A stretch of DNA of 64,000 nucleotides from a bacterium (lineage in GTDB: Bacteria; Bacillota; Clostridia; TANB77; UBA1234): assembly GCA_963637565.1 (NCBI GenBank), contig CAVHNT010000044.1:519-64518 (forward strand). Direction: 5' to 3'. Every line of letters starts with the position of its first letter. Within the stretch, counting starts at the first letter, position 1. Shown piece by piece: positions 1-14,800 of this stretch. The position numbers and the translations under genes were made by a program. The notes beneath the pieces were generated by a model. It was not told where the DNA came from. It did no database searches and was given only the letters and a program-made list of their open reading frames with translations.

Positions 1-441
1 CTAACGCCACTTGCAAGACTATAGAAAAAATTGTTAGTAGCATAGTATTTCTTACAATTTTGTATTATTCCAATTAAGTCTGTTTTGTTTCTATTGAATG
101 TAGGAAGTCCTGTTTGATTACTATTTAAATAAGCAACGGATTTTTTTAATGCTTTTCTTGTTGCGGACCCTACAATTCCGTCTTGAGATAGGTTATTATA
201 TTTTTGAAAATGTTTTACTGCATTTTTTGTTTTTGTTCCAAATATTCCGTCAACATCTATTGTATAGCCATTTTTCTTTAATAGGTCTTGTACCCACTTA
301 ACTCCTGTTCCTCTAGAACCATATTTTACGAGATAAGTTGGTTCTGTGTATGGACTTGTGTAAGCTGCAAATGAAATTGATGACATTGCGATTATCAGTA
401 CGAATACGGATATACTTAGCAATATTTTTTTTGACAATTTC
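1..441 (-). CDS. Secreted peptidoglycan-binding domain protein (PG_binding_1), 5' partial at window edge
   Basis: The minus-strand ORF starts at ATG 441 behind RBS AGGAGGTG. The N-terminus MKLSKKILLSISVFVLIIAMSSISFAAY is a signal peptide. The motif GSRGTGVKWVQDLLKKNGYTIDVDGIFGTKTKNAVKHFQKYNNLSQDGIVGSATRKAL is a classic PG_binding_1 repeat. The ORF runs off the window start. Confidence 0.6.
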
Positions 442-662
442 ATTATGTATCACCTCCTAGTAAACTTTGTTACGCTACATTTATATTGTAACATGAAATT
501 GAAATACTTGTTAATGCACAAATCTTGGAAGTATTGTAATTGTAAGGTAATGTTATATTTTTGCAAAATTAACATTTATTCTAATATGTTGAAAGGTATT
601 TGCTTTTATGGTATAAACTAATAGAGAAACTAATGAAAAATAATAAATATGAGGGGAAATAT

Positions 663-1331
663 ATGATTGAAAAAAAGCTTACGAATAAAAAATTAATCAT
701 TAAAAACTTAAAATGGGTTATTTTACTTTTTGGTGTTATTGGCTTTTTAGCATTGGCAGAAGATGTTTTTAATAAAGAAATAATGAAAGGAGATATTATT
801 GGATATAATCTTGTTTCAAATTTTCTAATATCAGATGTTGCAACTCCATTTGCGGTACTTATCACAAATTTTGGCGGACCAATAATGTTAGTTGGATTGA
901 CAGCTATTTTATTTATACTAATAAAAAACAAAAAGATTGGGATATCAATATTTGCAAATTTAGGTGTGATAATCATTCTTAATCAACTACTTAAACAAAT
1001 TCTTCAAAGACCAAGACCAACTGGTTATAGGCTAATTGAAGAAAGTGGTTATAGTTTTCCTTCAGGACATTCTATGGTTAGTATGGCTTTCTATGGATAC
1101 TTGATTTATCTGATATACAAGCATATAGAAAATAAATATTTAAAATGGACATTGATTTCAATATTAAGCATTTTAATTATTTTAATAGGAATTAGTAGAA
1201 TATATTTAGGTGTACATTATACGAGTGATGTTGCAGCAGGCTTTTTAATATCGGTTTCTTATTTGATGGCATATATTCCTATTGTAAACAAATTTTTGAC
1301 AAGGAGAAATGAAGATGAACTTGAGAAGTAA
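663..1331 (+). CDS. PAP2-family membrane phosphatase (undecaprenyl-diphosphate / phosphatidylglycerophosphate phosphatase-like)
   Basis: PAP2 motifs are present: KQILQRPRP, PSGHS and SRIYLGVHYTSDVAAG. The protein has several TM helices. RBS GAGGGG precedes the ATG at 663. Confidence 0.75.
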   Translation: MIEKKLTNKKLIIKNLKWVILLFGVIGFLALAEDVFNKEIMKGDIIGYNLVSNFLISDVATPFAVLITNFGGPIMLVGLTAILFILIKNKKIGISIFANLGVIIILNQLLKQILQRPRPTGYRLIEESGYSFPSGHSMVSMAFYGYLIYLIYKHIENKYLKWTLISILSILIILIGISRIYLGVHYTSDVAAGFLISVSYLMAYIPIVNKFLTRRNEDELEK

Positions 1332-1713
1332 AAGAAAGTTAAAAGTTAAGACTAAGAAGCTTATAAACAGTTTTAAATATGCTGGTGAAGGCTTTATATC
1401 ATCATTTAAAACAGAAAGAAATATGAAAATTCATATAATAATAATGCTACTTGTCATTTTAGCAGGAGTGTTGTTAAAAATAAATAAATTAGAATGGATT
1501 ATTTGTACAATATGCTTTGCTATTGTAATTGCGGGTGAAATGTTTAATACGGCGATTGAAACTGTTGTTAACATGATTACAACTGAAAAAAATGCAATGG
1601 CGAAAAACGCAAAGGACATATCTGCTGGTGCAGTTTTAATACTTGCTATCGGAGCTGCTGCAATAGGTCTTTCGATATTCGTTCCAAAGATATTAGAATA
1701 TATCGCACAGTAA
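1309..1713 (+). CDS. dgkA: Diacylglycerol kinase / undecaprenol kinase (DgkA family)
   Basis: DgkA signature FKYAGEGFISSFKTERNMKIH ... GEMFNTAIE is present. It is a small 3-TM protein. Its start overlaps the PAP2 gene end, so the two are likely translationally coupled. Confidence 0.75.
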   Translation: MKMNLRSKRKLKVKTKKLINSFKYAGEGFISSFKTERNMKIHIIIMLLVILAGVLLKINKLEWIICTICFAIVIAGEMFNTAIETVVNMITTEKNAMAKNAKDISAGAVLILAIGAAAIGLSIFVPKILEYIAQ

Positions 1714-1833
1714 AGAGGGAATAATCAATTGTAGATATTAAATTTAAAAATGACCATAAATAATCGCTTTCATTGGTATCAGAATGCAATGAACTTAATA
1801 TATATATTATATAAATTAAAAGGGGTTTGTATA

Positions 1834-3498
1834 ATGATTAATATCAATGAAAATACTGTGGCAGTTGAAACGTCTGCTGAATTAAAAAATGTTTTGGAAG
1901 CTAGTAACGATATAACTTATATATATTTGGCGAATGACATTACTTTAGAACAAGGAATAACAATTCTAGGGACAAAGGCACAAGTAACAATAGATGGACT
2001 CTATCCTGCCGACGAAACAGGGAAAATACATACATATACAGATATGAATAGTGCGGGTAGTGGAGATGCTATTGGTGTAAGAACCGCTAGTAACATACAT
2101 GTAAAAGTAAAAAACCTTAACGTCGTTGGAAAAAATTATTATGGGTTGATTTATGTATCTGAAACTTCTGCACACAAAGATGTAATTATTACTTATGAAA
2201 ATATAACATATAATGGTCCACAAATCACCTATCATCCTAGTGGACTTTCTATTTATCAAGATATGAACATAAACATAGTTGCCTCTACAGCTTCTCCTGC
2301 AAATGAGGTTGGAGAAGTTGGGAGTATTCAAATGGGTGGAAAAGTAGTAATAACACACAATGCGACTGGAGATTCAACATTTTGGTTTAGAGGAACAACA
2401 GGTACGCCATATATTGAAATACTGCAGGATGCTGATGTTTCTATAACCACCACAAGAGATATTGCATATACATCGAATTATTTAAAAGTCACTGTAAATA
2501 AGAATGCGAAATTTAACGTTAAAAGCAAATATGGATTCTTTAGAGATAATGGACATCAGGCATCTAGCATTTTAGTTGATGAAAATAGTGTGTTTTCAAT
2601 AATTCAAAGTCAGGCAAATGGTACTGTTGCAACATTAAATTGTCGAGGCGACTTCGAGGTGAATAGCGGTGCTACTATTTATTTAGAAGCTAATTATCAG
2701 AACTCGGCACCACTTATACTATTTAATACAACATCATCAAAGTTTAATATAAATAATCCTAAGAGTTTAATTCTATATAATAAAAGTTACAATTGTTTAG
2801 GTTTTGGAAATACCTCAACATTCAATATAAATTGTGGCAAACTTGATTATTGGGCAACATCTCCAGAGCTAATTGAAACAGGAAATATTGGCAATAATCC
2901 ACTGTATGCTTGGTATAAGTCAGGCACAGAAAACTTAAGTATGATTTCAAGTGTAACGTCGTCAAAAACAACAATAACAAGTACTAATTTAACAGATGAA
3001 GAAAAGACAAAGTTACCAGACTTGACTCTCTTAACATTTCAAACTGCAAAGACTATAAGGATTATGGAATTTGGAACTTTAGAATTATTAAGTGCACCAT
3101 CTAAAATAGAATTCCAGCGTCCAATAATAAAAGAAAATCCTCTTATACTTGGCAGGAAAAATGACGAAATAACTATATTAGTTAGTGATTCTAGAGTAAT
3201 TAGTTCGGAATGGTATTTATACGCGTATATAGAAAAACCACTCACGAGTTCAAATCAGAAATATACGTTAAAAGACTCACTAATTTTTGTGTCTGAAAGT
3301 GGAAAAATAAAAACGTTAAGTGATACTCCAACTCTAGTATACACAGGCAGTTCGAGTGGTGGAACATCGAAAACAACGGATATAAAATGGAATAAAACTG
3401 ATGGAATATTATTTCAAGTTATAGATGCTCTTTACAATGGAGAAACATATACTACTCCAATTAATTGGATTCTTACTGAAGAAAAAATAGAGTCTTGA
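1834..3498 (+). CDS. Hypothetical protein with predicted right-handed parallel beta-helix (pectin-lyase-like) repeats
   Basis: The likely start is M at 1834 (MININENTV) behind AAAGGGG. The sequence has repetitive N/T/S/G-rich short beta-strand segments and no signal peptide. It ends with a TGA stop, which shows TGA is a stop codon in this genome. Confidence 0.4.
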   Translation: MININENTVAVETSAELKNVLEASNDITYIYLANDITLEQGITILGTKAQVTIDGLYPADETGKIHTYTDMNSAGSGDAIGVRTASNIHVKVKNLNVVGKNYYGLIYVSETSAHKDVIITYENITYNGPQITYHPSGLSIYQDMNINIVASTASPANEVGEVGSIQMGGKVVITHNATGDSTFWFRGTTGTPYIEILQDADVSITTTRDIAYTSNYLKVTVNKNAKFNVKSKYGFFRDNGHQASSILVDENSVFSIIQSQANGTVATLNCRGDFEVNSGATIYLEANYQNSAPLILFNTTSSKFNINNPKSLILYNKSYNCLGFGNTSTFNINCGKLDYWATSPELIETGNIGNNPLYAWYKSGTENLSMISSVTSSKTTITSTNLTDEEKTKLPDLTLLTFQTAKTIRIMEFGTLELLSAPSKIEFQRPIIKENPLILGRKNDEITILVSDSRVISSEWYLYAYIEKPLTSSNQKYTLKDSLIFVSESGKIKTLSDTPTLVYTGSSSGGTSKTTDIKWNKTDGILFQVIDALYNGETYTTPINWILTEEKIES

Positions 3499-3887: not shown

Positions 3888-4271
3888 CTAAACTTTTTGC
3901 ACTTGAAAAGTAACTGTTGCATCTTCAGTATTAGCAATAGTGTCTAGTTGAACAGTTAATAAACCAGTTGTAGGATCATAGGTGTATTCTGTAACAACGC
4001 CATTTACCATTACACTATCATCAACTAGTTTAATCAATGTTGGATCTAAAGTATCTGTAAATACTGGCTTTTCATAAGGACTATCAGCATTATTTGTGAT
4101 TGTAACGGTATACATCAAATTACCACTTGCCCAATTTTGCTTATCAGCTTTCTTAACGATAGTTAAACCAGCTATTAACTCAGTAATGACGGCTTCAGAA
4201 GTAAGTGTAGTTGGAACAGCCTCATAATCTCCCACAACATTGGCAATATTGCTTAGTTTTACATTTGCCAT
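3888..4271 (-). CDS. DUF11 (conserved repeat domain) protein, possible spore-surface/appendage-type protein
   Basis: The 127-aa protein resembles the single-copy DUF11 / B_ant-repeat fold (TVTITNN...TDTLDPTLIKLVDDSVMVNGV...TYDPTTGLLTV...ATVTFQV). It has no signal peptide and stands as its own transcription unit. Confidence 0.45.
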   Translation of the reverse strand: MANVKLSNIANVVGDYEAVPTTLTSEAVITELIAGLTIVKKADKQNWASGNLMYTVTITNNADSPYEKPVFTDTLDPTLIKLVDDSVMVNGVVTEYTYDPTTGLLTVQLDTIANTEDATVTFQVQKV

Positions 4272-4513
4272 AAAAAATCCTTCCTCTCAATATATATATG
4301 AGATATAATGAAAAAATGATAAAAATATGTCGAAAAAACTTTAATTCGAACGAAAAATTTATTTTCATTTCAATTGAAAAACACCCAGAACCGAAAACTT
4401 AAATTTTGAAGATTTTAAGCTTTCTTATGCAAATAAACGGCGTTATTGAAAGTTATCACCATTTGTGTTAAAATTCAACATGGTAGAATTTAATAATATA
4501 AGAGGGTGAAAAC

Positions 4514-5134
4514 GTGGACAGAAAAATAAAAAAAGAGTTAAAAGATTTTAAGAACTTTAAGAAAAACTTCGAGTTTATTCAAAAAGAAATAGTACAAGAA
4601 GGCGAAAATTTGTTTTGTGATGGTGAACTATTACAAAGAAGTGAAGAAAAGCCTATAGGCGAAACTGAAAAATGGATAAATGTTGGATATAAGTTAAAAG
4701 GTCCTTTCTCAAAGGTGTTGTCAAATCTCTTTCCTTATGAATTTGTTTTTCGAGGTAAACATTTAAATAGTATTGAAACTTTCTTCCAAGGAATAAAGAT
4801 TAAAGATAAAAATACCCAAGAATATGTATTTAAATATAGTGGATTGGATTCAAATAATATAAAGGCAGCAAGTGATTTTAATTGGAAAGAGTCTGGCATT
4901 GTGTACTGGCAAGGCAAAGAAATAAAGAGGGATAGTGACGAGTACGATAATCTAGTTGATGAACTATATATATCAGCTATACAAAATCCATTATACAGAA
5001 ATGTACTTAAAAATATTAATAAACCTATTATCCATTCTATAGGTGAAGTGGACAAAAAGAAAACTGTTTTTACTAGATATGAATTTGAGTTTATGCTTAA
5101 TTGTCTTGTTGAATTTTTAAAATTGGAGAGGTGA
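4514..5134 (+). CDS. NADAR / DUF1768 (YbiA-like N-glycosidase) domain protein
   Basis: A GTG start sits behind RBS AGAGGGTGA. The motif FSKVLSNLFPYEFVFRGKHLNSIETFFQGIK matches the YbiA/NADAR core (FSNF..P..F..GK...SxEHyFQAqK). The later PIIHSIGEVDKKKTVF matches the LVEHTEND.YWG region. Confidence 0.55.
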   Translation: MDRKIKKELKDFKNFKKNFEFIQKEIVQEGENLFCDGELLQRSEEKPIGETEKWINVGYKLKGPFSKVLSNLFPYEFVFRGKHLNSIETFFQGIKIKDKNTQEYVFKYSGLDSNNIKAASDFNWKESGIVYWQGKEIKRDSDEYDNLVDELYISAIQNPLYRNVLKNINKPIIHSIGEVDKKKTVFTRYEFEFMLNCLVEFLKLER

Positions 5135-5138
5135 TAAT

Positions 5139-5366
5139 ATGGAAAAATTAGAATTAAAGGATTTTGATTTGCTTGGTATTATAGATTTACAAGATGTATA
5201 TGGAATTGAATCTATGGTTACTCCTATTATGTCTGATGGAAAGATAATATCATATCTATCACGTTCTAAAGAATATTACAATGTAAAAAACATGAAGGAG
5301 TTATCTCAAACAAGAGAAAAATTAAAAGAATTATTAACAGAATCGGTATCTAAAAAAATTTTGTAA
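5139..5366 (+). CDS. Hypothetical small protein (75 aa), middle gene of the NADAR–PRTase cassette
   Basis: RBS GGAGAGGTG lies 6 nt upstream of the ATG. The gene is 5 nt after the NADAR gene and 11 nt before the PRTase gene. No motif recognised. Confidence 0.45.
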   Translation: MEKLELKDFDLLGIIDLQDVYGIESMVTPIMSDGKIISYLSRSKEYYNVKNMKELSQTREKLKELLTESVSKKIL

Positions 5367-5377
5367 TATTAGAATAT

Positions 5378-6391
5378 ATGCTTAATTGTTCTGCTAAAGT
5401 GTATTTTAAAAAATTTGAAGAATATATAAAGAATGGAAAAAAGGACAAATACAGAGCTGAATTACAACAGGCTGAAAAATGTTTGATAGAAGATACTACG
5501 AGTATGATATCAGTTTTGGAAGGAAAAAAAGTGGACAAAAGCTTTATTACAAATATATTGCCTGAGGGAAATGAAAATTGTGAACGTAGATTTATTGAAA
5601 TGGACAATAAGGCTATATTGTACCTTTTTGCGAAGGAAATTCAAAAACTAAATATTGGAAATAATTTCGAGGTTTTAACTCCAGGCTATGGAAGTGTGTA
5701 CATAGGTCCATTTCTTAAAATTATGTGTGGCTATAATTATAGTAACATGATGAAAAGCAAGTATATTGATGAAACAAATGGCACGATATCTCATTCTTTA
5801 GTAGATTTACTATCTAATGATAAAATGTTACATTCTGATGTTGGAATTTTGTTATTAGATGATAATATCGGCACTGGTTCTACAATGGTTGATATTAAAC
5901 AAAAGCTGAAAAAAATAGGAAAAAACAATGTGATGTCTGGCGCTGTTCAATATAATTGGAGAAATTATTATAGAGTTTCAATAGGAGAAAAAACGGATAT
6001 AGAAAGATTTGAAGTAGATGATTATGACTTTTTAACGCCACTTAATTATGCTGGACACAAATTGTATGAACATGCTGTAAATGCTTTGAACTCTAGTGGA
6101 ATGGAATATATTGAATATTTAAATACAAAGGGATACAGAATGAATGATAGGTATTGTGACATTGTAGGAGATTTACTTCGTGGCTTAACATGGGCTGGGA
6201 AAGCTAATTTAGAGCTTATTCCACTAAAGAAAAGTAATAATGAATTATGTGAAGTTCTTCCTAAATACAAACATGGACCATTTAGAGTAAGTAATACAAA
6301 TGCAAGACTAATGATACAATTCATGTATAAATCATTGCAAGACTTACTAGATAAAGATATTGATGATAAAGAGTATAGTAATAGAGAATGA
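5378..6391 (+). CDS. Phosphoribosyltransferase (PRTase type I fold)-domain protein of unknown specificity
   Basis: The PRPP-binding loop DVGILLLDDNIGTGSTMVDIKQKL matches the canonical VLLVDDvltTGxT motif. The 337-aa protein is longer than housekeeping PRTases and has extra N- and C-terminal regions. It is tightly linked to the upstream gene. Confidence 0.55.
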   Translation: MLNCSAKVYFKKFEEYIKNGKKDKYRAELQQAEKCLIEDTTSMISVLEGKKVDKSFITNILPEGNENCERRFIEMDNKAILYLFAKEIQKLNIGNNFEVLTPGYGSVYIGPFLKIMCGYNYSNMMKSKYIDETNGTISHSLVDLLSNDKMLHSDVGILLLDDNIGTGSTMVDIKQKLKKIGKNNVMSGAVQYNWRNYYRVSIGEKTDIERFEVDDYDFLTPLNYAGHKLYEHAVNALNSSGMEYIEYLNTKGYRMNDRYCDIVGDLLRGLTWAGKANLELIPLKKSNNELCEVLPKYKHGPFRVSNTNARLMIQFMYKSLQDLLDKDIDDKEYSNRE

Positions 6392-6706
6392 GAAGATTTT
6401 ATCTTGAATAAAGATGAAACAATTTTGCTACCAGTAGTGAACAAATTGCCTTTGACGCATAACATTATGTTATTAGAGAAAATAAAAGATAAAAAATAAG
6501 ATTTTTGTGTGCAAATAAAGTGGCGAATAATAAATATCAAAGGTTGCTTTAAATCATCAAATAGATATGAACTTGTACGAAGTAAAGGTGTTAACAGCTG
6601 AAAATAACACTGTCGGAAAAAAACACATTGATAATTTTTTAAATGAAGCAAGAATGATAGAGAATGGAAGTCGGTAAAAAGTATTAACTGAAAAAGGAGT
6701 AAGATT

Positions 6707-7153
6707 ATGGGAATAATATCATTAGCAAGTGGTAATTCATGTTGGAGAGGTTTGGATTATTATAAATATAAAAAGATTATTAAATTAAATAAAATAAATG
6801 AAAATGTGTATGAAAGTGTTGTAGAAGGAACTGATAAGTACAATGTGCATTTAGATATTGAACATCCTAGAAAATCTACATGTGATTGTCCTTTAGCTAA
6901 TGGTAAAAGAATAATATGTAAGCATATAGTTGCAACGTATTTTGAAGCTTTGCCAAGAGAAGCAAAAGAATTTGAAGAAGAACAGAAAAGATTACAACAA
7001 GAGTATGAAAAAGAGCAAGAGGAGGAATATAATAAAGCAATTAAATATTTAAACAAAATGACAAAGCAAGAATTAATTAACGAATTAATTCAAGTGCTCG
7101 ATTATGGACCCGAATGGCTATATAACGATTTTGTAAAAAGAAATCTATACTAG
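6707..7153 (+). CDS. SWIM zinc-finger domain protein
   Basis: The motif CDCPLANGKRIICKHIVA fits the SWIM signature CxCx(n)CxH. The protein has an acidic, coiled-coil C-terminus. RBS AAAGGAG is present. Confidence 0.5.
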   Translation: MGIISLASGNSCWRGLDYYKYKKIIKLNKINENVYESVVEGTDKYNVHLDIEHPRKSTCDCPLANGKRIICKHIVATYFEALPREAKEFEEEQKRLQQEYEKEQEEEYNKAIKYLNKMTKQELINELIQVLDYGPEWLYNDFVKRNLY

Positions 7154-7213: not shown

Positions 7214-8068
7214 ATGAAGATAATTGAAAATAAATATTCTGACAATACTTTTGAAAATATAAAACATATTGATAATTATGGAAATGAATATTGATATGCC
7301 CGTGAATTACAAAAAGTATTGGAATACAAGGATTGGAGAAACTTTCAAAAAGTAATAGATAAAGCAGTTTTATCAGCAAATAACAGTGTCTCAAGTGAAG
7401 AAAATTGGGTTGTTGAGATCAACAAGCCAATAAAAACTGGTAAAGGAAAAGAAGAAATCATTAAAGATTATAAACTTTCAAGATATATATGTTATTTGAT
7501 AGTGCAAAATGCTGATCCAAATAAAGAAGTTGTTGCTTTAGGGCAAACATATTTTGCTATTCAAACGAGAAAGCAGGAAATAACTGAACAAGAATATGAC
7601 TCATTATCAGATGATGAGAAAAGATTTTATCAAAGAAAATTAACAAAGCAAGGTAACTATACACTTCAAAAAGTTGCTTCAGCTGCTGGTGTTAAAAATA
7701 TGGCTGAATTTCATAATGCAGGATATGAAGGATTATATAATGGCGAAACTGCTGATGATATTTTTAAAAGAAAAAAATTGCGTTATAGAGAAGATATTTT
7801 AGATAATATGAATGAAGATGAATTAGTAGCTAATTTATTTAGAATAAATCAAACTAAGCAAAAACTTTTAAAAGATAATGTACAAGGAGAAAAAGAAGCA
7901 AAAGATGTACATTATGAAGTTGGACAAAAAGTTAGAAAAACAATTGCAGATATCGGCGGAATGATGCCTGAAGAAATGCCAACACCTAAAAAGAGTTTGA
8001 AAGAACTAGAAAGAGAAAAGAAACAATTGGAAAACAAAGAGCAAAAGAAACTAGATGAAATGAAATAA
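7214..8068 (+). pseudogene. dinD: DNA-damage-inducible protein D (DinD) homologue interrupted by an in-frame TGA at 7292-7294
   Basis: The ATG at 7214 behind RBS AAAAGGAGG gives MKIIENKYSDNTFENIKHIDNYGNEY, then TGA, then YARELQKVLEYKDWRNFQKVIDKA...YICYLIVQNADPNKEVVALGQTYFAIQTRKQE. This matches the DinD family across the stop. The TGA sits where a conserved Trp (TGG) is expected (EYWSARDL in E. coli DinD). Confidence 0.6.
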
Positions 8069-8147
8069 AGATGTAATGAGAAATGATATGAGTGAAAGTG
8101 GATTTGCTTTAGAGCTGAAATATTTAATAAAATAAGGAAGTGAAAAA

Positions 8148-9071
8148 ATGGACATGTATCAAAAAAGAAAAATGAGACAAGAAATGAATAGTAGTGGAAA
8201 TAAAGAAGAAAATAGCAAAACAAGTATTAACTGGTACCCAGGCCACATGGCGAAGGCTAGGCGAGAAATTGAAGAAGCTATAAAATTGGTTGATGTTGTT
8301 ATAGAAATAGTAGATGCAAGAATTCCTAAATCAAGCAGGAATCCTGTGTTAAATGAAATAATATCGGACAAGCCAAGAGTTATAGTTTTAAATAAGACCG
8401 ACTTAGCAAATAGAAACGAAACCAAAAAGTGGATTGAGTATTTTAAAAAATATAATCAGGTGGCTATTGAAGTAAATTCAAATCAAGGAATTGGTGTTAA
8501 AGATGTTGTTAATGCTACTTATGATTTTATGAGTGAAATGCTTAAGAAAAAAGAAGAAAAAGGACAAGTTGGAGCATCTGTAAAGGCAATGATAGTAGGT
8601 ATTCCTAATGTTGGCAAATCGACCTTTATAAATAAGATTGCCGGTAAGTCGACAGCTGCAACTGGAAATAAACCTGGCGTGACTAAGAAAAATCAATGGG
8701 TTAGATTAAATGATAAGATACAATTATTAGATACTCCTGGTGTGCTATGGCCTAAATTTGAAGATGAAATTACAGCAAGGCATTTGGCATACATTGGTAC
8801 TATAAAGGACACTATATTGGATGTCGAAGAACTTGCACTACACTTGATTGAAGAATTATTGGTCTGTGATAAAGAAAAATTATTTGAAAGATATAAAATT
8901 TCAAATGATTTTGAATACGAAATGCCTGTTGAAGTAATGGAAGAGATTGGCAGAAAAAGAGGATGTTTAGTTAGAGGTGGAGAAATTGATTATACTAAAG
9001 TGGCTAATATTCTTTTAGACGAGTTTAGATGTGGAAAAATAGGAAATATAACACTAGAATGTGCTAAATAA
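8148..9071 (+). CDS. rbgA: Ribosome biogenesis GTPase A (YlqF/RbgA)
   Basis: INWYPGHMAKARREIEEAIKLVDVVIEIVDARIP is the circularly permuted GTPase signature. The motifs VLNKTDL and GIPNVGKST are present. Confidence 0.85.
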   Translation: MDMYQKRKMRQEMNSSGNKEENSKTSINWYPGHMAKARREIEEAIKLVDVVIEIVDARIPKSSRNPVLNEIISDKPRVIVLNKTDLANRNETKKWIEYFKKYNQVAIEVNSNQGIGVKDVVNATYDFMSEMLKKKEEKGQVGASVKAMIVGIPNVGKSTFINKIAGKSTAATGNKPGVTKKNQWVRLNDKIQLLDTPGVLWPKFEDEITARHLAYIGTIKDTILDVEELALHLIEELLVCDKEKLFERYKISNDFEYEMPVEVMEEIGRKRGCLVRGGEIDYTKVANILLDEFRCGKIGNITLECAK

Positions 9072-9086
9072 TATGAGGGATAAAAT

Positions 9087-9464
9087 ATGAAAAAAGAAGA
9101 TGTATTGCAGTATTCATCACTTGTTTTAGCGTATATGGGGGATGCTGTATATGAAAAATATATACGAGAATATGTTATTAAAGAAGGAAATTGTAATAAT
9201 GGCTTATTGCATAAAAAAAGCATAAAATATGTTAGTGCTAAAGGTCAATGCGAAATATTAAAAAGAATAGAAGAGAAATTAACAGAGGAAGAGAAGGATA
9301 TTGTTAGAAGAGGAAGAAATTCAAATCCACATTCTAGTGCTAAAAATGCAGATATAGTTGAGTATAAACACGCGACAGGATTTGAAGCATTAATTGGATA
9401 TTTATATTTGACTGAGCAAACAGAAAGACTTACGGAAGTGCTTAGTTGGTGTACAGAAAAATAA
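9087..9464 (+). CDS. mrnC: Mini-ribonuclease 3 (MrnC/YazC)
   Basis: LAYMGDAVYE, the RNase III-like catalytic signature, is present. The 125-aa size and the FEALIGYLYL motif fit. Confidence 0.75.
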   Translation: MKKEDVLQYSSLVLAYMGDAVYEKYIREYVIKEGNCNNGLLHKKSIKYVSAKGQCEILKRIEEKLTEEEKDIVRRGRNSNPHSSAKNADIVEYKHATGFEALIGYLYLTEQTERLTEVLSWCTEK

Positions 9465-9530
9465 AAGATAAAGATTAATATATTATTTAAAAAGATTTAA
9501 GTCAAAATAATATCAGAAATGTGCTTAAAA

Positions 9531-9575
9531 TTTTGCAAAAAGCTTGATTTCCGTAGAATAATATGGTAAAATTTG
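9531..9575 (+). promoter_or_regulatory. Putative sigma-A promoter of the rimP-nusA-infB operon
   Basis: TTGCAA is followed by a spacer and an extended -10 TGgTAAAAT. A leader hairpin at 9601-9624 follows. Confidence 0.4.
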
Positions 9576-9739
9576 CATAGCATAATAAAGAAGATACATG
9601 AAGAGTGAGGCACGCCTCACTCTTTACTTATGCAAAGGGAAAGTTAAATTTTTCTTCTACATAGAAACATTTAATTTAAACATAAGATTTTCTTAGAGCA
9701 GAGAATCAGAGATTTTCAACTTTCTTGAAGGAGGAATAT

Positions 9740-10204
9740 ATGACTAAATTGGAAAAAGAACTTGAAAAGATTATAGAGCCTATTGTTAATGGCTTAGGCT
9801 ATTCTTTATATGATATTGAGTATGTAAAAGAAGGCAAGGAATGGTTTTTAAGACTATATATTGATAATGAGAAAGGCATAGATTTAGATGACTGTGAAAA
9901 AGTGAGTAATGCAGTTAGTGATGAGCTTGACAAAGTTGATCCTATCGAATCTGCATATTCATTAGAAGTTTCTTCTTGTGGATTAGAAAGAAGATTAAGA
10001 GAAAAAAAACATTATGAAGCGGCACTACAAAAAGAAGTTGAAATCGGGCTTTTTAGAGCTATTGAAAAATCTAAGAAGATTATAGGAAAACTAGAAGAAG
10101 TTGATGATGAAAAAATAGTTGTTTCTGATGAAAACAAAAATAAAATAGAAATAAATTTTGATAATATATCAAATGCAAAAATATTATTTAATTGGGAGGA
10201 ATAA
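9740..10204 (+). CDS. rimP: Ribosome maturation factor RimP
   Basis: ATG 9740 sits behind GAAGGAGG. It has the RimP fold motifs and the conserved operon position before nusA. Confidence 0.85.
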   Translation: MTKLEKELEKIIEPIVNGLGYSLYDIEYVKEGKEWFLRLYIDNEKGIDLDDCEKVSNAVSDELDKVDPIESAYSLEVSSCGLERRLREKKHYEAALQKEVEIGLFRAIEKSKKIIGKLEEVDDEKIVVSDENKNKIEINFDNISNAKILFNWEE

Positions 10205-10209
10205 GAAAA

Positions 10210-11268
10210 ATGAATAAGGAATTTTTTGAAGCATTGGAAGAATTAAGTGTAGAGAAAGGAATAAATAAGGAGTATTTACTTGATGCAATTGAGTCAGCTT
10301 TGGTTACAGCTTATAAAAAGAATTTCAACTCACAAGAAAATGTGAAAATTGTTATAGATGAAGAAAAAGCTTCAATAAAAGTATATTCATTAAAAGAAGT
10401 TGTTGAAGAGGTTTTTGATCCAGCAATAGAAATATCTGTTGAATCAGCACAGAAGTACAAAAAGAGAGCTGAAATTGGTGATATAGTTGAGGTTGAAATT
10501 ACACCAAAAGATTTTGGAAGAATCTCTGCACAAACTGCTAAGCAAGTTATTATTCAAAAAATAAGAGAAGCTGAAAGAGAAATTGTTTTCAGTGAGTATT
10601 CTGATAGACAAGGCGAAATTGTTAGTGGGTTGGTTCAAAAGGTTGATAAAAATGTTATGATTGTTGATCTTGGAAAAATCGAAGGAATTATGACAGCCAA
10701 TGAGCAAATTGAGAGTGAAGAATATCATGTTAATGACAAAATAAAAGCTTATGTTTTAGAAGTACAAAAAAATAGCAAGGGTGTTCCTCAAATGTTGATT
10801 TCAAGAACTCATCCTGGATTTGTAAAGAGACTTTTTGAACTTGAGATTCCTGAAATTTATGAAGGGCTAATTGAAATAAAAAATATCGTTAGAGAAGCTG
10901 GTTCAAGAACTAAGATTGCAGTATATTCAAAAGATATGAATATTGATCCTGTTGGTTCTTGCGTTGGCCCAAGAGGAATAAGAATTCAAAATATATTAAA
11001 TGAATTAAGAAATGAAAAAATAGATGTTGTTGAATGGAGTGAAGATCCAGTTCAATATATAGCTTCTGCATTAAGCCCAGCTACGGTTTTAGCTGTTGAC
11101 ATCAATCAAGATGATATGTCATCAAAAGTTGTAGTACCAGATAATCAATTGTCTCTTGCAATTGGTAAAGATGGACAAAATGCAAGATTATCTGCAAAAC
11201 TTACTGGATGGAAAATTGATATAAAGAGTGAAAGTCAGATAAAAGAAGAAATGGGTACAAATAATTAG
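10210..11268 (+). CDS. nusA: Transcription termination/antitermination factor NusA
   Basis: The N-terminus MNKEFFEALEELSVEKGI is followed by S1 and KH domains (GDIVEVEI..., VGSCVGPRGIRIQNI). RBS GGGAGG is present. Confidence 0.9.
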   Translation: MNKEFFEALEELSVEKGINKEYLLDAIESALVTAYKKNFNSQENVKIVIDEEKASIKVYSLKEVVEEVFDPAIEISVESAQKYKKRAEIGDIVEVEITPKDFGRISAQTAKQVIIQKIREAEREIVFSEYSDRQGEIVSGLVQKVDKNVMIVDLGKIEGIMTANEQIESEEYHVNDKIKAYVLEVQKNSKGVPQMLISRTHPGFVKRLFELEIPEIYEGLIEIKNIVREAGSRTKIAVYSKDMNIDPVGSCVGPRGIRIQNILNELRNEKIDVVEWSEDPVQYIASALSPATVLAVDINQDDMSSKVVVPDNQLSLAIGKDGQNARLSAKLTGWKIDIKSESQIKEEMGTNN

Positions 11269-11287
11269 TTTTTAAGAAGGTGAATAT

Positions 11288-11551
11288 ATGAAAAAAATTC
11301 CATTAAGACGTTGCTTGGGGTGCTATGAATCTAAACCTAAGAAAGAATTATGCAGAGTTGTTAAAACTACAAATGGTGAGATTTGTATAGATAAAACAGG
11401 AAAGATTAATGGCAGAGGTGCATATATTTGTTATAATGTTGAGTGTTTAGAGAAGGCAATAAAAGCAAAAAGACTTGAGAAAGAATTTGAAACAAATATT
11501 TCAGATGAGATATATTCGAATTTAAGGAGAGATATATTAAGTGATAAATAA
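11288..11551 (+). CDS. ylxR: YlxR/RnpM (DUF448) RNA-binding protein
   Basis: PLRRCLGCYESKPKKELCRVV is the YlxR signature. It occupies the conserved position between nusA and infB. Confidence 0.8.
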   Translation: MKKIPLRRCLGCYESKPKKELCRVVKTTNGEICIDKTGKINGRGAYICYNVECLEKAIKAKRLEKEFETNISDEIYSNLRRDILSDK

Positions 11552-11864
11552 AGTTTTTTCTATGCTAGGTCTTTCTATGAAAGCTGGAAAGCTTGTGTGT
11601 GGAACTGATGTGTGTATTGAGAATATTAAAAATAACAAAGCATTTTTAATAGTAATTGCAGATGACGCATCAGAAAATACAAAAGAAAAATTTGAAAGAT
11701 TGTGCAAACAATATAAAGTAAATCTTATATATTTTGGAGATAAATTTTCTTTAAGTAGAGCGGTCGGCAAAGTTGATAAGGCTGTATATGCTGTTTTAGA
11801 TAAAGGGTTTAGTGAAAAAATATTGCAAATTGAAAAAGAGAATCAAAAGGGGGCTACAAATTAA
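11541..11864 (+). CDS. ylxQ: L7Ae-family ribosomal-protein-like protein (YlxQ)
   Basis: [16 protein letters not shown] ... [12 protein letters not shown] has the L7Ae/L30e fold. The start may be GTG 11541 or ATG 11562. Confidence 0.75.
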
Positions 11865-11865
11865 T

Positions 11866-14800
11866 ATGGGAAGAATGAAAGTACATGAATTAGCTAAAGA
11901 ATTGAATATGACAAGCAAGGAACTAATGGATAAATTAATTAAGTTAAATTATAACGTAAAGAGCCATTTGTCTACGCTTGAAGAAGATGAGGTTGAAAAA
12001 ATAAAAAAACAACTGAGAGAAAGTAATTCTAATTCGACTTCAAATGGTAAAAATGAAAAAGATGTTCCTAAAAAGGAAAAGAAGCCAATAGCTCCTGTTA
12101 TCATAAGAAGAGAGGTTACTAGAATAGAAAGTAGTAATCCACAAATTAAGAGAATGGATAGTAAAGAATCACCTAGAGACGAACTAGGTGTTGTTCAAAG
12201 AAGAACGGATACATCTATGAATATTAAATATAGAACCCCTCCAAGACAAATAGGAAGTATAACCCCTAAAGCAGAAACATCAAAAGCAGAGCCTGTAAAA
12301 AATGAAGTAAAGAAAGTTGAGTCTCTAAAAGTTGAATCTAAAAAAGAAGAAAATAAAGAGGAAATAATATCAAAAGAAAAAGTTATCGAAAATGTAGATA
12401 AAAAGAATATAGTAGTTAAAGAAGAAGTTAAAAAGGAAGAAACAAAGCCGATTGTGAAAGAAGAAGCAAAAGGCGAAAACAAGCCTAAAGAAATACCAGT
12501 ATTAAAGGATGAAGTTGAAGTGAAAAAAGAGCGACCAAAAATGGAATCTAATGAAAAGCAAAATAATAAGCCAAGATTTGAAAACAGAAATGTGGATAAT
12601 CAATATCAAAAGCAAAGACAAGATAATAATAGAAATAATCAAGAAAGATTTCAAAATAATAATCAAAATAGATATCAAAAATTTGATGGAAACAAAGATG
12701 GCAACAGGGATAATAGATTTGATAATAAGAGAAATGATAATAGATTCCAAAAAGATAATAAATTTCAAAATAATAAAGATCAGAGAAATAATAATGATGG
12801 CAACAGGCAAGGCGGCTATAATAAAGACCAACGTAAATTCAATAATAACAACAGACCTGCTCAAACTAGAGAAAATAAGGTAGAGAAAGATATAAAGGGG
12901 ATTATTGCTGCTAATACAGAAGTATCTACTAAAGAAGCAGGAAGAGAAGCCGTTAGAACTGGTTATAAAGATAAAGAAAAAGACAACAGAAAATTTGAGG
13001 AGTCAACCAAAAAGGTAAGTAAATCTAGAAGCTCTAGAGCAGAAAGGGACGACATCAACTATGATAAATTAAAAGATTTACAATCTGAAAGCAATTTCTC
13101 AAATATGTTTAATGATACAGACAGTAAAATGTTTGATTACTATGATTTATCTAGAGGCAAAGGCAAAAAGAAAAATAAGAAAAAGCCAACTGAAAGTAAA
13201 GAACATATTGATCAAAAAATATTTGAACTTACAGATATTGATTTGCCAGAAACTGTTACAGTTAAAGAGCTTGCTGAAAAATTGAAAAAACAAGCATCTG
13301 AAATTATAAAGAAATTAATGGGCTATGGTGTTTTAGCAACACTTAACAACGAATTAGATTTTGATACAGCATATTTAGTAGCTAGTGAATTTGGAGTAAC
13401 TGCTCATAAGAAAGAAACTTTATCTGATGAAGATATTCTATTTGATGATACAGATGATAATGAAGATGAATTAGTTCCAAGACCTCCAATAGTAGTTGTC
13501 ATGGGACATGTAGACCATGGTAAGACTTCACTTCTTGATGCAATCAGATCAACAAATGTAATAGAAAAAGAAGCTGGTGGTATTACACAACATATAGGTG
13601 CTTATAAAGTTGAAATAAATGGAAGAGAGATTACATTTATAGATACTCCTGGACACGAAGCTTTTACAGCTATGCGTGCAAGAGGAGCACAAGTTACAGA
13701 TGTTGCAATTATAGTTGTAGCAGCTGATGATGGTATAATGCCACAAACAATTGAAGCAATAAATCATGCTAAAGCAGCTGGAGTATCAATAATTGTTGCT
13801 ATAAACAAGATTGATAAAGAGGGTGCAAATATAGATAGAGTAAAACAAGAGATAATGGAATATGGTTTGGTACCTGAAGAATGGGGTGGCGACACAATTT
13901 GTGTTCCAATATCAGCAAAACAAAACAAGAACATTGACTCATTATTAGAAATGGTTTTACTTGTTGCTGACATGAAAGAATTGAAAGCAAATCCAAATAA
14001 ACAAGCAAAAGGAACAGTATTGGAAGCAAGACTTGATAAGAATACTGGTATTACAGCATCACTTCTTGTACAAAGAGGAACATTAAATATAGGTGATACA
14101 ATTGTTGTAGGAAGTGTAATAGGAAAAATCAGAGGAATGATAGATGACAAAGGACAAAAAGTTAAAGCTGCTGGTCCATCAACACCAGTTGAAGTTATCG
14201 GTCTTTCTGAAGTGCCAGAAGCTGGTGAAGTATTCTACGAAGTTGAAAATGAAAAAGTTGCAAAACACTTAATAGACAAGAGAAAACGTAAACAAAGAGA
14301 AGAAATGTTAAGAATGGCTGCACCGGTTACATTGGATAATCTATTCAATCAAATTGAAGAAGGTAAATTGAAAGATTTGAACATAATAATAAAAGCAGAC
14401 TTAGCAGGTTCTGTTCAAGCTTTAAAAGCTTCACTTGAAAAGATAAGAAATGAAGAAGCAAGAGTTAGAATTATTCATAGTAATGTTGGTGGAATTACAG
14501 AATCAGATATTACACTTGCAAAAGTAACAAATTCAATAATAATAGGATTTAATGTTAGAGCTGATTCAACAGCAAAATCGATGGCAGAAAAAGAAGGAGT
14601 ACAAATAAACTTATATTCAGTAATTTATAATGCTATTGATGATGTCACCGCAGCACTAAAAGGAATGCTAAAACCAAAATACAAAGAAGTAATTCAAGGT
14701 ACAGCAGAAGTAAGACAAACATTTAAAATTACTAATGTTGGTATGATTGCAGGATGCTATGTATTAGATGGAAAGATAGTAAGAAATTCTGGACTTCGTG

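Follow-up and report, generated by a model that had tools for sequence, protein, structure and literature searches.

Three open reading frames (ORFs) that follow one another closely on the plus strand raise the question of whether they form a three-component system, and of what such a system would do. They lie in a stretch of 64,000 nucleotides (nt) of contig CAVHNT010000044.1 (GenBank assembly GCA_963637565.1, a bacterium of the Clostridia); this whole stretch is called the window below. ORF1 (206 amino acids, aa; GTG start), ORF2 (75 aa) and ORF3 (337 aa) are separated by 4 nt (ORF1/ORF2) and 11 nt (ORF2/ORF3), with coordinates given in Table 1. The original prediction described them as a cassette of a NADAR gene, a small gene and a gene with a phosphoribosyltransferase (PRTase) domain. 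Its peptide LSNLFPYEFVFRGKHLNSIETFFQGIK, quoted for the NADAR core, is found in ORF1, and VGILLLDDNIGTGSTMVDIK, quoted as the loop binding 5-phosphoribosyl 1-pyrophosphate (PRPP), in ORF3; of the reported gaps of 5 and 11 nt, the second is correct, whereas the first is 4 nt. The three same-strand ORFs also stand where they had been placed. The count of three genes, however, is wrong: the cassette consists of two genes, a NADAR gene (gene 1) and one PRTase-family gene of ~417 aa (gene 2), of which ORF2 and ORF3 are the two parts.

One PRTase gene split by a one-nucleotide deletion

A search with ORF3 as a query returned ~170 homologues, nearly all of them 414–431 aa long and collinear with ORF2 and ORF3 together. 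Among these, the 417-aa protein P0001 is 99% identical to ORF3, starts with the exact ORF2 sequence and runs continuously over the ORF2/ORF3 junction (...TESVSKKNFVILEYMLNCSAKV...); at the same place, one frame of the window ends in ...TESVSKKIL* and the next one goes on with KNFVILEYMLNCSAKV... When the DNA is aligned with that of four contigs of the same species, one column out of 82 sets the window apart from the intact form, namely A7 in the window versus A8. The 5′ fragment of gene 2 stops at a TAA that is made by this frameshift. Direct translation of the other distinct loci gives an open PRTase frame of 417–431 codons in 22 cases out of 22. As for the 75-aa middle gene, which had been taken for a separate component, it is the N-terminus of the PRTase, complete with the invariant RSKEYYN.K motif of the family, and should not be annotated as a gene.

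The A7 allele is also carried by L010 (MAG HGM13621, a GTDB species representative), a metagenome-assembled genome (MAG) from an independent assembly. Its PRTase gene has in addition an extra T in a T-run ~270 nt downstream of the A7 tract (near window position 5624), with six in-frame stops between the two indels, and in its NADAR gene the start and the first ~15 codons are replaced, upstream of the window-equivalent position 4558. Since L010 shares A7 and bears further damage, the A7 allele is not a random sequencing error; it is inherited, a real pseudogene allele in the lineage of the window, and sequencing error as the sole cause of the frameshift was rejected on these grounds. For L010, tblastn reports a single full-length high-scoring segment pair with "78% identity" that bridges 91 out-of-frame codons, and direct translation was decisive. 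The whole module of L010 (4376–6254) is decaying. A seemingly split gene in L029 was rejected as a second independent disruption, the interruption being a run of 10 Ns, that is, a scaffold gap. In the window, the effector gene is dead and an intact "orphan" NADAR remains; low-level transcriptional slippage may take place on the A-run.

A genuine three-gene cassette, in which the 75-aa protein would be a third component (an adaptor, small antitoxin or regulator), is extremely improbable: ORF2 does have a good Shine–Dalgarno sequence and ATG of its own, and the 75-aa peptide would be made in this strain, but the one continuous 414–431-aa protein encoded by the 22 other loci and the ~170 database homologues (P0001 among them), the A8 to A7 deletion of 1 nt in a homopolymer, the lack of a ribosome-binding site before ORF3, the AlphaFold2 model, which packs residues 1–75 into one compact fold with the rest (predicted template modelling score, pTM, 0.90), and the additional damage in L010, the only other genome with a split gene, led us to reject it. 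As read from the sequence, a Shine–Dalgarno-like GGAG/GAGG precedes ORF1 and ORF2, and upstream of the ORF3 ATG at 5378 there is no Shine–Dalgarno, only A/T-rich sequence.

The two proteins and their linkage

Gene 1 matches the Pfam family PF08010 (Phage_30_3) with E=6.5e-28 and 97.7 bits (cutoff 36) over residues 67–197 (profile positions 5–135 of 138), and gives no match to PF08719 (NADAR/DUF1768) at E<=1. A fold search finds a YbiA-like alpha+beta fold, and a PDB sequence-profile search with the NADAR alignment returned no match. Membership in the NADAR superfamily, as originally proposed, is borne out, but the family is the sister family PF08010 and not DUF1768/PF08719. The gp30.3 proteins are the phage branch of this superfamily and have a His in the last strand, versus Glu in YbiA and Asp in DarG1 (PMC11125620; PMC11543638). 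Their T4 representative, gp30.3 or AdfN, is an orphan antitoxin-like protein that removes guanine ADP-ribosylation and defeats DarTG1, and its mutants E36A and K43A are inactive (bioRxiv 10.1101/2024.07.11.602962); the Glu holds the distal ribose, the Lys the phosphate (PMC11543638). Residues E88, Q92 and K95 of gene 1 are invariant in 30 homologues (alignment A1), and, judging from motif and spacing, E88 and K95 probably correspond to the catalytic E36 and K43 of AdfN. H174, which lies in a short strand before the last helix of the gene 1 model, would be the subfamily-defining His and is probably equivalent in position to that of AdfN. With E88, K95 and H174 kept, gene 1 looks catalytically competent. 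It is also extended at the N-terminus by 66 aa (modelled as one helix and three strands), and 1,237 phage genomes, most of them T4-like, encode homologues with <=35% identity. No DarT-like gene was found in the locus of the window.

The intact product of gene 2 is modelled by AlphaFold as one compact structure (predicted local distance difference test 88, pTM as above), with a five-stranded Rossmann-like PRTase core flanked by a hairpin at the N-terminus, a helical bundle and helices at the C-terminus; the nearest structures are solved metabolic PRTases. The 13-residue PRPP motif ILLLDDNIGTGST is canonical and invariant in alignment A2, in which D241, D242, N243, G245, T246, G247 and T249 as well as the motifs PGYG and IEMDNK do not vary. 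The DDN.GTG.T loop, PG.G and IE.DNK are kept even in distant relatives, RSKEYYN.K, invariant in the family, is retained in very distant ones, and the PRPP loop has been preserved in almost all distant and fused relatives. Judged by these motifs, the intact PRTase looks catalytically competent.

In keeping with the original prediction, profile searches do not make gene 2 an ordinary purine/pyrimidine PRTase or ComF homologue. PF00156 scores 18.6 bits versus a cutoff of 26.3, a sub-threshold match confined to the PRPP loop, although some homologues have a precomputed PF00156 match; NCBIfam models reach 10–19 bits versus cutoffs of 113–500, with weak, loop-only matches to Prs, HGPRT, PurF, ComF and APRT. 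The PADLOC retron model PRTase_III-A matches at loop level (E=6e-4 over 45 residues), and PADLOC, NCBIfam and PHROGs yielded either such loop-level matches or nothing. A hidden Markov model search of 1.84 billion cluster representatives recovered 128 relatives, 56 of them below 1e-30, and the family, small as it is, appears to be unnamed. The 18 GTDB species representatives that carry the family all belong to uncultured Clostridia of the gut, and none of 50,697 phage genomes carries it. A phage origin of the PRTase was rejected on this count, with one IMG/VR contig carrying the pair at the contig end.

Distant members of the family are informative as to the possible product. In P0391, P0411, P0392, P0417, P0445 and L041:4418–7275 the PRTase is fused to a C-terminal HisA/HisF TIM barrel (PF00977), and some of these fusions begin with an APH/RIO1/TCAD9 kinase-like domain at the N-terminus. 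In L041, genes for a kinase-like protein, the PRTase-HisA/F fusion and a HAD hydrolase overlap, with no NADAR nearby. Another form (L038:1507–3999, P0377, P0383, P0396, P0401) joins a ~445-aa N-terminal region, whose sole Pfam signal is a faint GLAA-B beta-barrel match, to the PRTase module (~800–830 aa in total). Because HisA/HisF-type barrels act on N-(5′-phosphoribosyl) adducts, these fusions suggest that the family makes a product of N-phosphoribosyl-amine type, which would be hydrolysed by the NADAR or rearranged by the HisA-like partner. Such a product fits a conflict role or a metabolic role alike.

The PRTase and the NADAR are adjacent on the same strand, usually 0–10 nt apart, in all 36 fetched loci that carry this PRTase and in the window, a sample that takes in 18 GTDB species representatives and no fewer than 6 flanking contexts unrelated to one another. 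The pair stands between dgkA and SWIM-rbgA, between holB-PSP1-ferredoxin and LPG synthase, and, where a nucleoside triphosphatase (NTPase) gene adjoins it, between MatE/Cmk-NTPase and DXS, AMP-ligase-NTPase and HAD, or PHP-NTPase and ENPP. Loci reached through divergent NADAR homologues, some of which at first seemed to have no PRTase, show other arrangements. In L040 the order is reversed, with a 395-aa version of the PRTase directly upstream of the NADAR; in L038/39 an 830-aa PRTase fusion lies upstream, and its stop codon overlaps the NADAR start. The co-conservation that had been predicted is thus seen in the fetched loci as strict linkage, not as scattered genes, and two tightly linked, co-oriented genes co-inherited across contexts are what is expected of a type IV-like toxin–antitoxin pair. 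Of the loci seen, only L037:4001–6164 has a close NADAR homologue (61% identity) but lacks a PRTase-family gene in the surrounding ±4 kb. Dependence is asymmetric: the PRTase always occurs with the NADAR, and the NADAR sometimes without the PRTase, as in L037 and in the phage genomes, which is the pattern expected if a dangerous enzyme depends on its neutraliser. Downstream of the L037 NADAR come a 118-aa unknown ORF and a 332-aa Endonuclease_NS_2 protein. A dgkA-anchored check of which members of the species have the pair returned only contigs of ~1.2–1.5 kb.

Table 1. Positions in the window of the NADAR–PRTase pair, its motifs and lesion, and the block that contains it
Feature	Position	Strand	Remarks
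Gene 1 (ORF1), NADAR-fold N-glycosidase, gp30.3/AdfN subfamily	4514..5134	+	Intact, 206 aa
Gene 2, PRTase-family, single ~417-aa gene	5139..6391	+	Frameshift pseudogene here
Gene 2, 5′ fragment (ORF2), 75 codons	5139..5366	+	N-terminal beta-hairpin, RSKEYYN.K, start of first long helix
Gene 2, 3′ fragment (ORF3), 337 codons	5378..6391	+	Helical bundle, PRTase core, C-terminal helices; no ribosome-binding site before ATG
Lesion, A7 tract	5352..5358	+	A8 in intact alleles (1-nt deletion)
NADAR catalytic motif SIETFFQGIK	4769..4798	+	E88 and K95 invariant, seven residues apart
Codon of His174 (IIHSIG)	5033..5035	+	Invariant in alignment A1
PRPP-binding loop VGILLLDDNIGTGSTM	5840..5887	+	Four hydrophobic, two acidic, G/T-rich turn; DD codons 5858–5863
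Best sigma-70-like promoter match upstream of gene 1, TTGAAA-17-TAAAAT	4446..4474	+	Extended −10 TG; consensus match only, weak
Exchanged accessory block (pair, DUF1016_N remnant, SWIM ORF)	4136..7149		blastn versus L001, L028, L030, L010

The region contains 23 sigma-70-like sites versus 17.7 expected by chance. No intrinsic terminator was found 3′ of the pair, and a search with Rfam of the leaders of the pair found no riboswitch or other known leader RNA.

Conflict module or metabolic operon

With the gene structure, the frameshift, both folds, the conserved catalytic motifs and the strict linkage established, the function of the pair can be weighed. The leading hypothesis, with about an even chance of being right, is a two-gene conflict module of toxin–antitoxin or abortive-defence type, inactivated in the window. 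As to toxicity, acceptor substrate, reversal by the NADAR and anti-phage role, we infer the following scheme. The long protein would be a PRPP-dependent PRTase that attaches 5-phosphoribose to a nucleobase nitrogen, in a nucleotide or nucleic acid, or that drains or derails PRPP/purine metabolism, as ShosT does. The upstream NADAR of AdfN/gp30.3 type would hydrolyse the N-ribosyl linkage made by the PRTase, acting enzymatically on the product like the type-IV antitoxin DarG1, and would protect the cell until some trigger upsets the balance between the two. In the window, the A8 to A7 frameshift would have killed the effector of such a module and left its neutraliser behind as an orphan. This reading is favoured because the linkage is strict and asymmetric, because the pairing survives both reversal of the gene order (L040) and fusion (L038/39), because both proteins look catalytically competent, because precedents exist (DS-32, DarT1/DarG1, YarT/YbiA and ShosT), and because the block appears to be laterally exchanged, with defence-candidate ORFs adjacent, variable cargo and a decaying effector.

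The last of these points concerns the accessory stretch in which the pair lies, and which was described correctly in the original prediction as flanked by a DAGK_prokar gene (dgkA) and a gene for an RbgA-type GTPase, between which DUF11 and SWIM ORFs are found. The exchanged block is 96.8–97.8% identical to L001, L028, L030 and L010 according to blastn, whereas the core DNA on its flanks (window 1–1797 and 8127–13170 were compared) is 85% identical for PAP2/dgkA, 90% for rbgA and 86% for rimP-infB. Because the block is ~97% identical while the flanks are at 85–90%, these 3 kb appear to have been exchanged recently between diverged genomes. The cargo of the dgkA–rbgA interval also varies among strains, and the adhesin-like, DUF11 and DinD-like genes of the window are missing from L028. 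Two neighbouring ORFs match candidate defence families of PADLOC. The 249-aa ORF at 7319–8068 (+, TTG start) matches the PADLOC model PDC-S13 with E=2e-80 (profile positions 36–276 of 281) and, in addition, the N-terminal part of a "Type I specificity subunit" model; the window and L010 contain this ORF, which L028/L030 lack. It had been called a dinD pseudogene, but looks like a near-full-length PDC-S13 member and is not obviously a pseudogene. The 148-aa SWIM zinc-finger ORF at 6707–7153 (+) matches PDC-S62 (E=5e-15) only over the N-terminal ~115 of 566 positions, and could be what a truncation has left or a domain on its own.

Several other features of this stretch were observed. Between dgkA and the pair, the window encodes a 582-aa protein whose adhesive domain is pectate-lyase-like (PF20585) at 1750–3498 (+) and a 127-aa DUF11 protein at 3888–4271 (−); of the former gene, L028/L030 keep only a ~200-bp remnant (window 3283–3488). 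In other strains, a 37-aa ORF, a remnant of DUF1016_N (YhcG-type nuclease), overlaps the stop codon of the PRTase (L028:4876–4989). In the window (6389–6420), a 2-nt deletion near 6407 shortens this remnant further, an instance of gene decay in the islet.

A number of observations weigh against a conflict role. First, a gene for a YjjX/Mj0226-type NTPase (PF01931 NTPase_I-T, 166–171 aa) adjoins the pair in 13 of the 18 species representatives. It lies upstream in L007:4743–5258, L031:4732–5244 and L034:4601–5101 as well as in L012, L013, L015–L017, L019 and L021–L026, and downstream in L014:6373–6837; the NTPase genes of different loci are 44–70% identical, and their outer flanks differ. Second, other nucleotide-metabolism genes are frequent neighbours of the pair (NrdD, Tmk-like, PHP phosphoesterase, ENPP-type phosphodiesterase, HAD/PGP phosphatase and Nudix), and the operon of kinase-like, PRTase-HisA/F and HAD-hydrolase genes in distant members looks biosynthetic. 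Third, the NADAR is more conserved than the PRTase (59–68% versus 47–54% identity over the same loci), which is unusual for an antitoxin. Moreover, the family is limited to a narrow set of uncultured gut Clostridia, and its co-conservation could partly be plain vertical synteny; most loci are surrounded by housekeeping genes, and no integrase or transposase is close by. In PADLOC the PRTase is matched at the level of the loop only. Finally, the closest precedent, DS-32, shows no sequence or profile similarity to the pair: BLASTP of DS-32 proteins against the window proteins gave nothing (E>=2.6), hhalign assigned 0.2% to the PRTases (a 30-sequence DS-32A profile versus the 44-sequence family of the window), and PF24390, the Pfam family of DS-32A, has no match on gene 2. 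Gene 1 and DS-32B likewise have no BLASTP match, and hhalign gives a probability of 0.7%, with the catalytic motif aligned on SSEILYQACR. Homology to DS-32A/B at the level of sequence and profile was rejected on these BLASTP and hhalign results.

The nucleotide-related neighbours are mixed with others in some loci. In L034–L036 (7333–13269), downstream of the pair, the ENPP-type phosphodiesterase is intact in L036 and fragmented in L034/L035, and a metallo-beta-lactamase-fold ORF shows a faint Apyc1-like match; L034 has an ADP-ribosylglycohydrolase+DUF6508 gene, and L035/L036 a RelB/YafQ pair. These downstream genes are a mix of nucleotide-processing and conflict-type.

The best-surviving alternative, although somewhat unlikely, is a metabolic operon for damage control or salvage of nucleotides or cofactors with no conflict role. 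Together with the NTPase, the NADAR would cleave an aberrant N-ribosyl-5′-phosphate compound, as YbiA does for riboflavin intermediates, and the PRTase would re-use or make a base–ribose-phosphate intermediate. The NTPase adjacency speaks for it, being repeated in L007/8 and L031–36 with differing flanks and surviving rearrangement in L014, as do the nucleotide-metabolism neighbours, the HisA/HisF fusions (one of them between small-molecule-kinase-like and HAD hydrolase genes) and the housekeeping chromosomal settings. YbiA-type NADARs, moreover, are cited as metabolic N-glycosidases (in PMC11125620 and PMC9503650). However, a PRTase and an N-glycosidase acting on the same bond would run a futile cycle unless their substrates differ. 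The NTPase is not obligatory, as it is absent from the clade of the window, from three other lineages and from the whole 64-kb window, and it lies 100–800 nt away, whereas the pair is tightly coupled. The apparently recent exchange of the block beside defence-candidate ORFs, the decay of the PRTase gene, the known role in conflict of the AdfN-type NADAR subfamily and the absence of any riboswitch or known leader RNA among those sought also argue against a purely metabolic function. A literature search for work linking YjjX with NADAR, or on PRTase-CE, found nothing. The original idea that an enzyme making N-ribosyl bonds and one breaking them form a toxin–antitoxin or defence pair survives as the leading hypothesis, with the metabolic operon still alive beside it. 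If the latter is right, the pair would represent an uncharacterised nucleotide-repair route in abundant, uncultured gut Clostridia.

A specific version of the conflict module, rather unlikely in all its parts together, would bring in the NTPase as well. The PRTase would put PRPP-derived 5-phosphoribose on a nucleobase nitrogen (of DNA, RNA or a nucleotide), the His-type NADAR would be its dedicated eraser, the pair would be the source of the AdfN of T4-like phages, and the NTPase would form a second layer that destroys the non-canonical nucleotide. Such base phosphoribosylation would be the PRPP-dependent counterpart of guanine ADP-ribosylation.

Quite improbable is a reading in which the NADAR is the key gene, an immunity or repair enzyme working alone that frees guanine in DNA or RNA of ADP-ribose or like adducts after attack by a foreign ADP-ribosyltransferase (ART), with the PRTase as an accessory (regulator or sensor) or merely co-transcribed. 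All tested NADAR subfamilies, T4 gp30.3 included, do hydrolyse guanine–ADP-ribose (PMC11125620; bioRxiv 10.1101/2024.07.11.602962), and the NADAR is the better conserved partner, intact in the window beside a broken PRTase and alone in L037. The PRTase, however, is never found without the NADAR, the persistence of the pairing through inversion and fusion indicates direct functional coupling, and the catalytic loop of the PRTase is strongly conserved. Besides, in L010 the 5′ end of the NADAR gene was also lost once the PRTase was dead, which suggests that the NADAR has little value alone in that lineage.

Comparison with known systems

Regarding metabolic enzymes, the pair recalls the logic of HisG followed by HisA, in which HisA/HisF process PRTase-made N-(5′-phosphoribosyl) adducts, and distant PRTase members are fused to such barrels. 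These fusions, however, occur in a distant branch without NADAR, and no histidine- or riboflavin-pathway genes were found in the locus of the window. YbiA is a NADAR that hydrolyses metabolites of N-(5-phosphoribosyl)amine type, but gene 1 does not belong to the YbiA (Glu) subfamily.

Among defence effectors, ShosT is a PRTase toxin whose toxicity needs PRPP binding and the DD pair of the PRPP loop, and whose acceptor is not known. ShosT, PsyrT and retron III-A share with gene 2 a type-I PRTase core with a canonical PRPP loop inside a larger protein, but the similarity is at loop level only (PRTase_III-A E=6e-4; PsyrT E=2e-3 for a distant relative). Neither a reverse transcriptase with its non-coding RNA nor a DprA-like protein was found among ORFs and Pfam matches of the ±5 kb around the pair, be it in the window or at the other loci, and Rfam gave nothing. 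As a small, motif-rich family with a confident structure and informative fusions, the gene 2 PRTases make the question of what PRTase defence effectors phosphoribosylate more approachable.

DarT1-DarG1 and YarT-YbiA are two-gene anti-phage operons in which the NADAR is a type-IV-like antitoxin that reverses an N-glycosidic base modification (PMC11125620; PMC11543638). The pair resembles them in this NADAR-antitoxin principle. Their toxins, however, are NAD+-dependent ARTs, while in the window a PRPP-dependent PRTase-fold protein takes that place, and the ORFs and Pfam matches of the window locus include no ART.

T4 AdfN shares <=35% identity with gene 1; it is encoded by a phage as an orphan and lacks the N-terminal extension. 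Gene 1, in contrast, is chromosomal, has the 66-aa extension and comes with an obligate-looking PRTase partner that no phage genome searched carries. The authors of the AdfN study suggested that phages may have domesticated a bacterial antitoxin (bioRxiv 10.1101/2024.07.11.602962), and the pair bears directly on this idea. If it is a conflict system, the AdfN/gp30.3 subfamily, known so far only as phage counter-defence, gains a bacterial home and a partner.

The nearest likeness is DS-32 ("NADR", found by DefensePredictor), a NADAR+PRTase pair whose protection against phages was validated in E. coli in 2025/26 (bioRxiv 10.1101/2025.01.08.631726; PMC13092281). It consists of the E. coli proteins WP_000097610.1 (PRTase) and WP_032260665.1 (NADAR), and its mechanism is not known (PMC13092281); its authors suggested toxin–antitoxin-like partner swapping relative to DarTG1 (bioRxiv 10.1101/2025.01.08.631726; PMC13092281). 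The original prediction recognised no described system in the arrangement. A NADAR+PRTase anti-phage pair has in fact already been validated, but the pair of the window shows no sequence or profile homology to it. Both have two same-strand genes, overlapping or tightly spaced, for a ~340–420-aa protein with a PRTase core and extra domains and for a ~205-aa NADAR. The gene order of DS-32, however, is opposite to that of the window, DS-32 comes from Proteobacteria and the window pair from gut Clostridia, and DS-32B belongs to PF08719 whereas gene 1 belongs to PF08010, the two being of the same superfamily by fold. The window pair is thus analogous to DS-32 (the same two folds, similar size and tight coupling) and not a member of its family. 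Should it serve in conflict, NADAR+PRTase pairs would have evolved a second time independently, which would argue that a PRPP-dependent effector with a product-erasing N-glycosidase is a general solution and not a DS-32 one-off.

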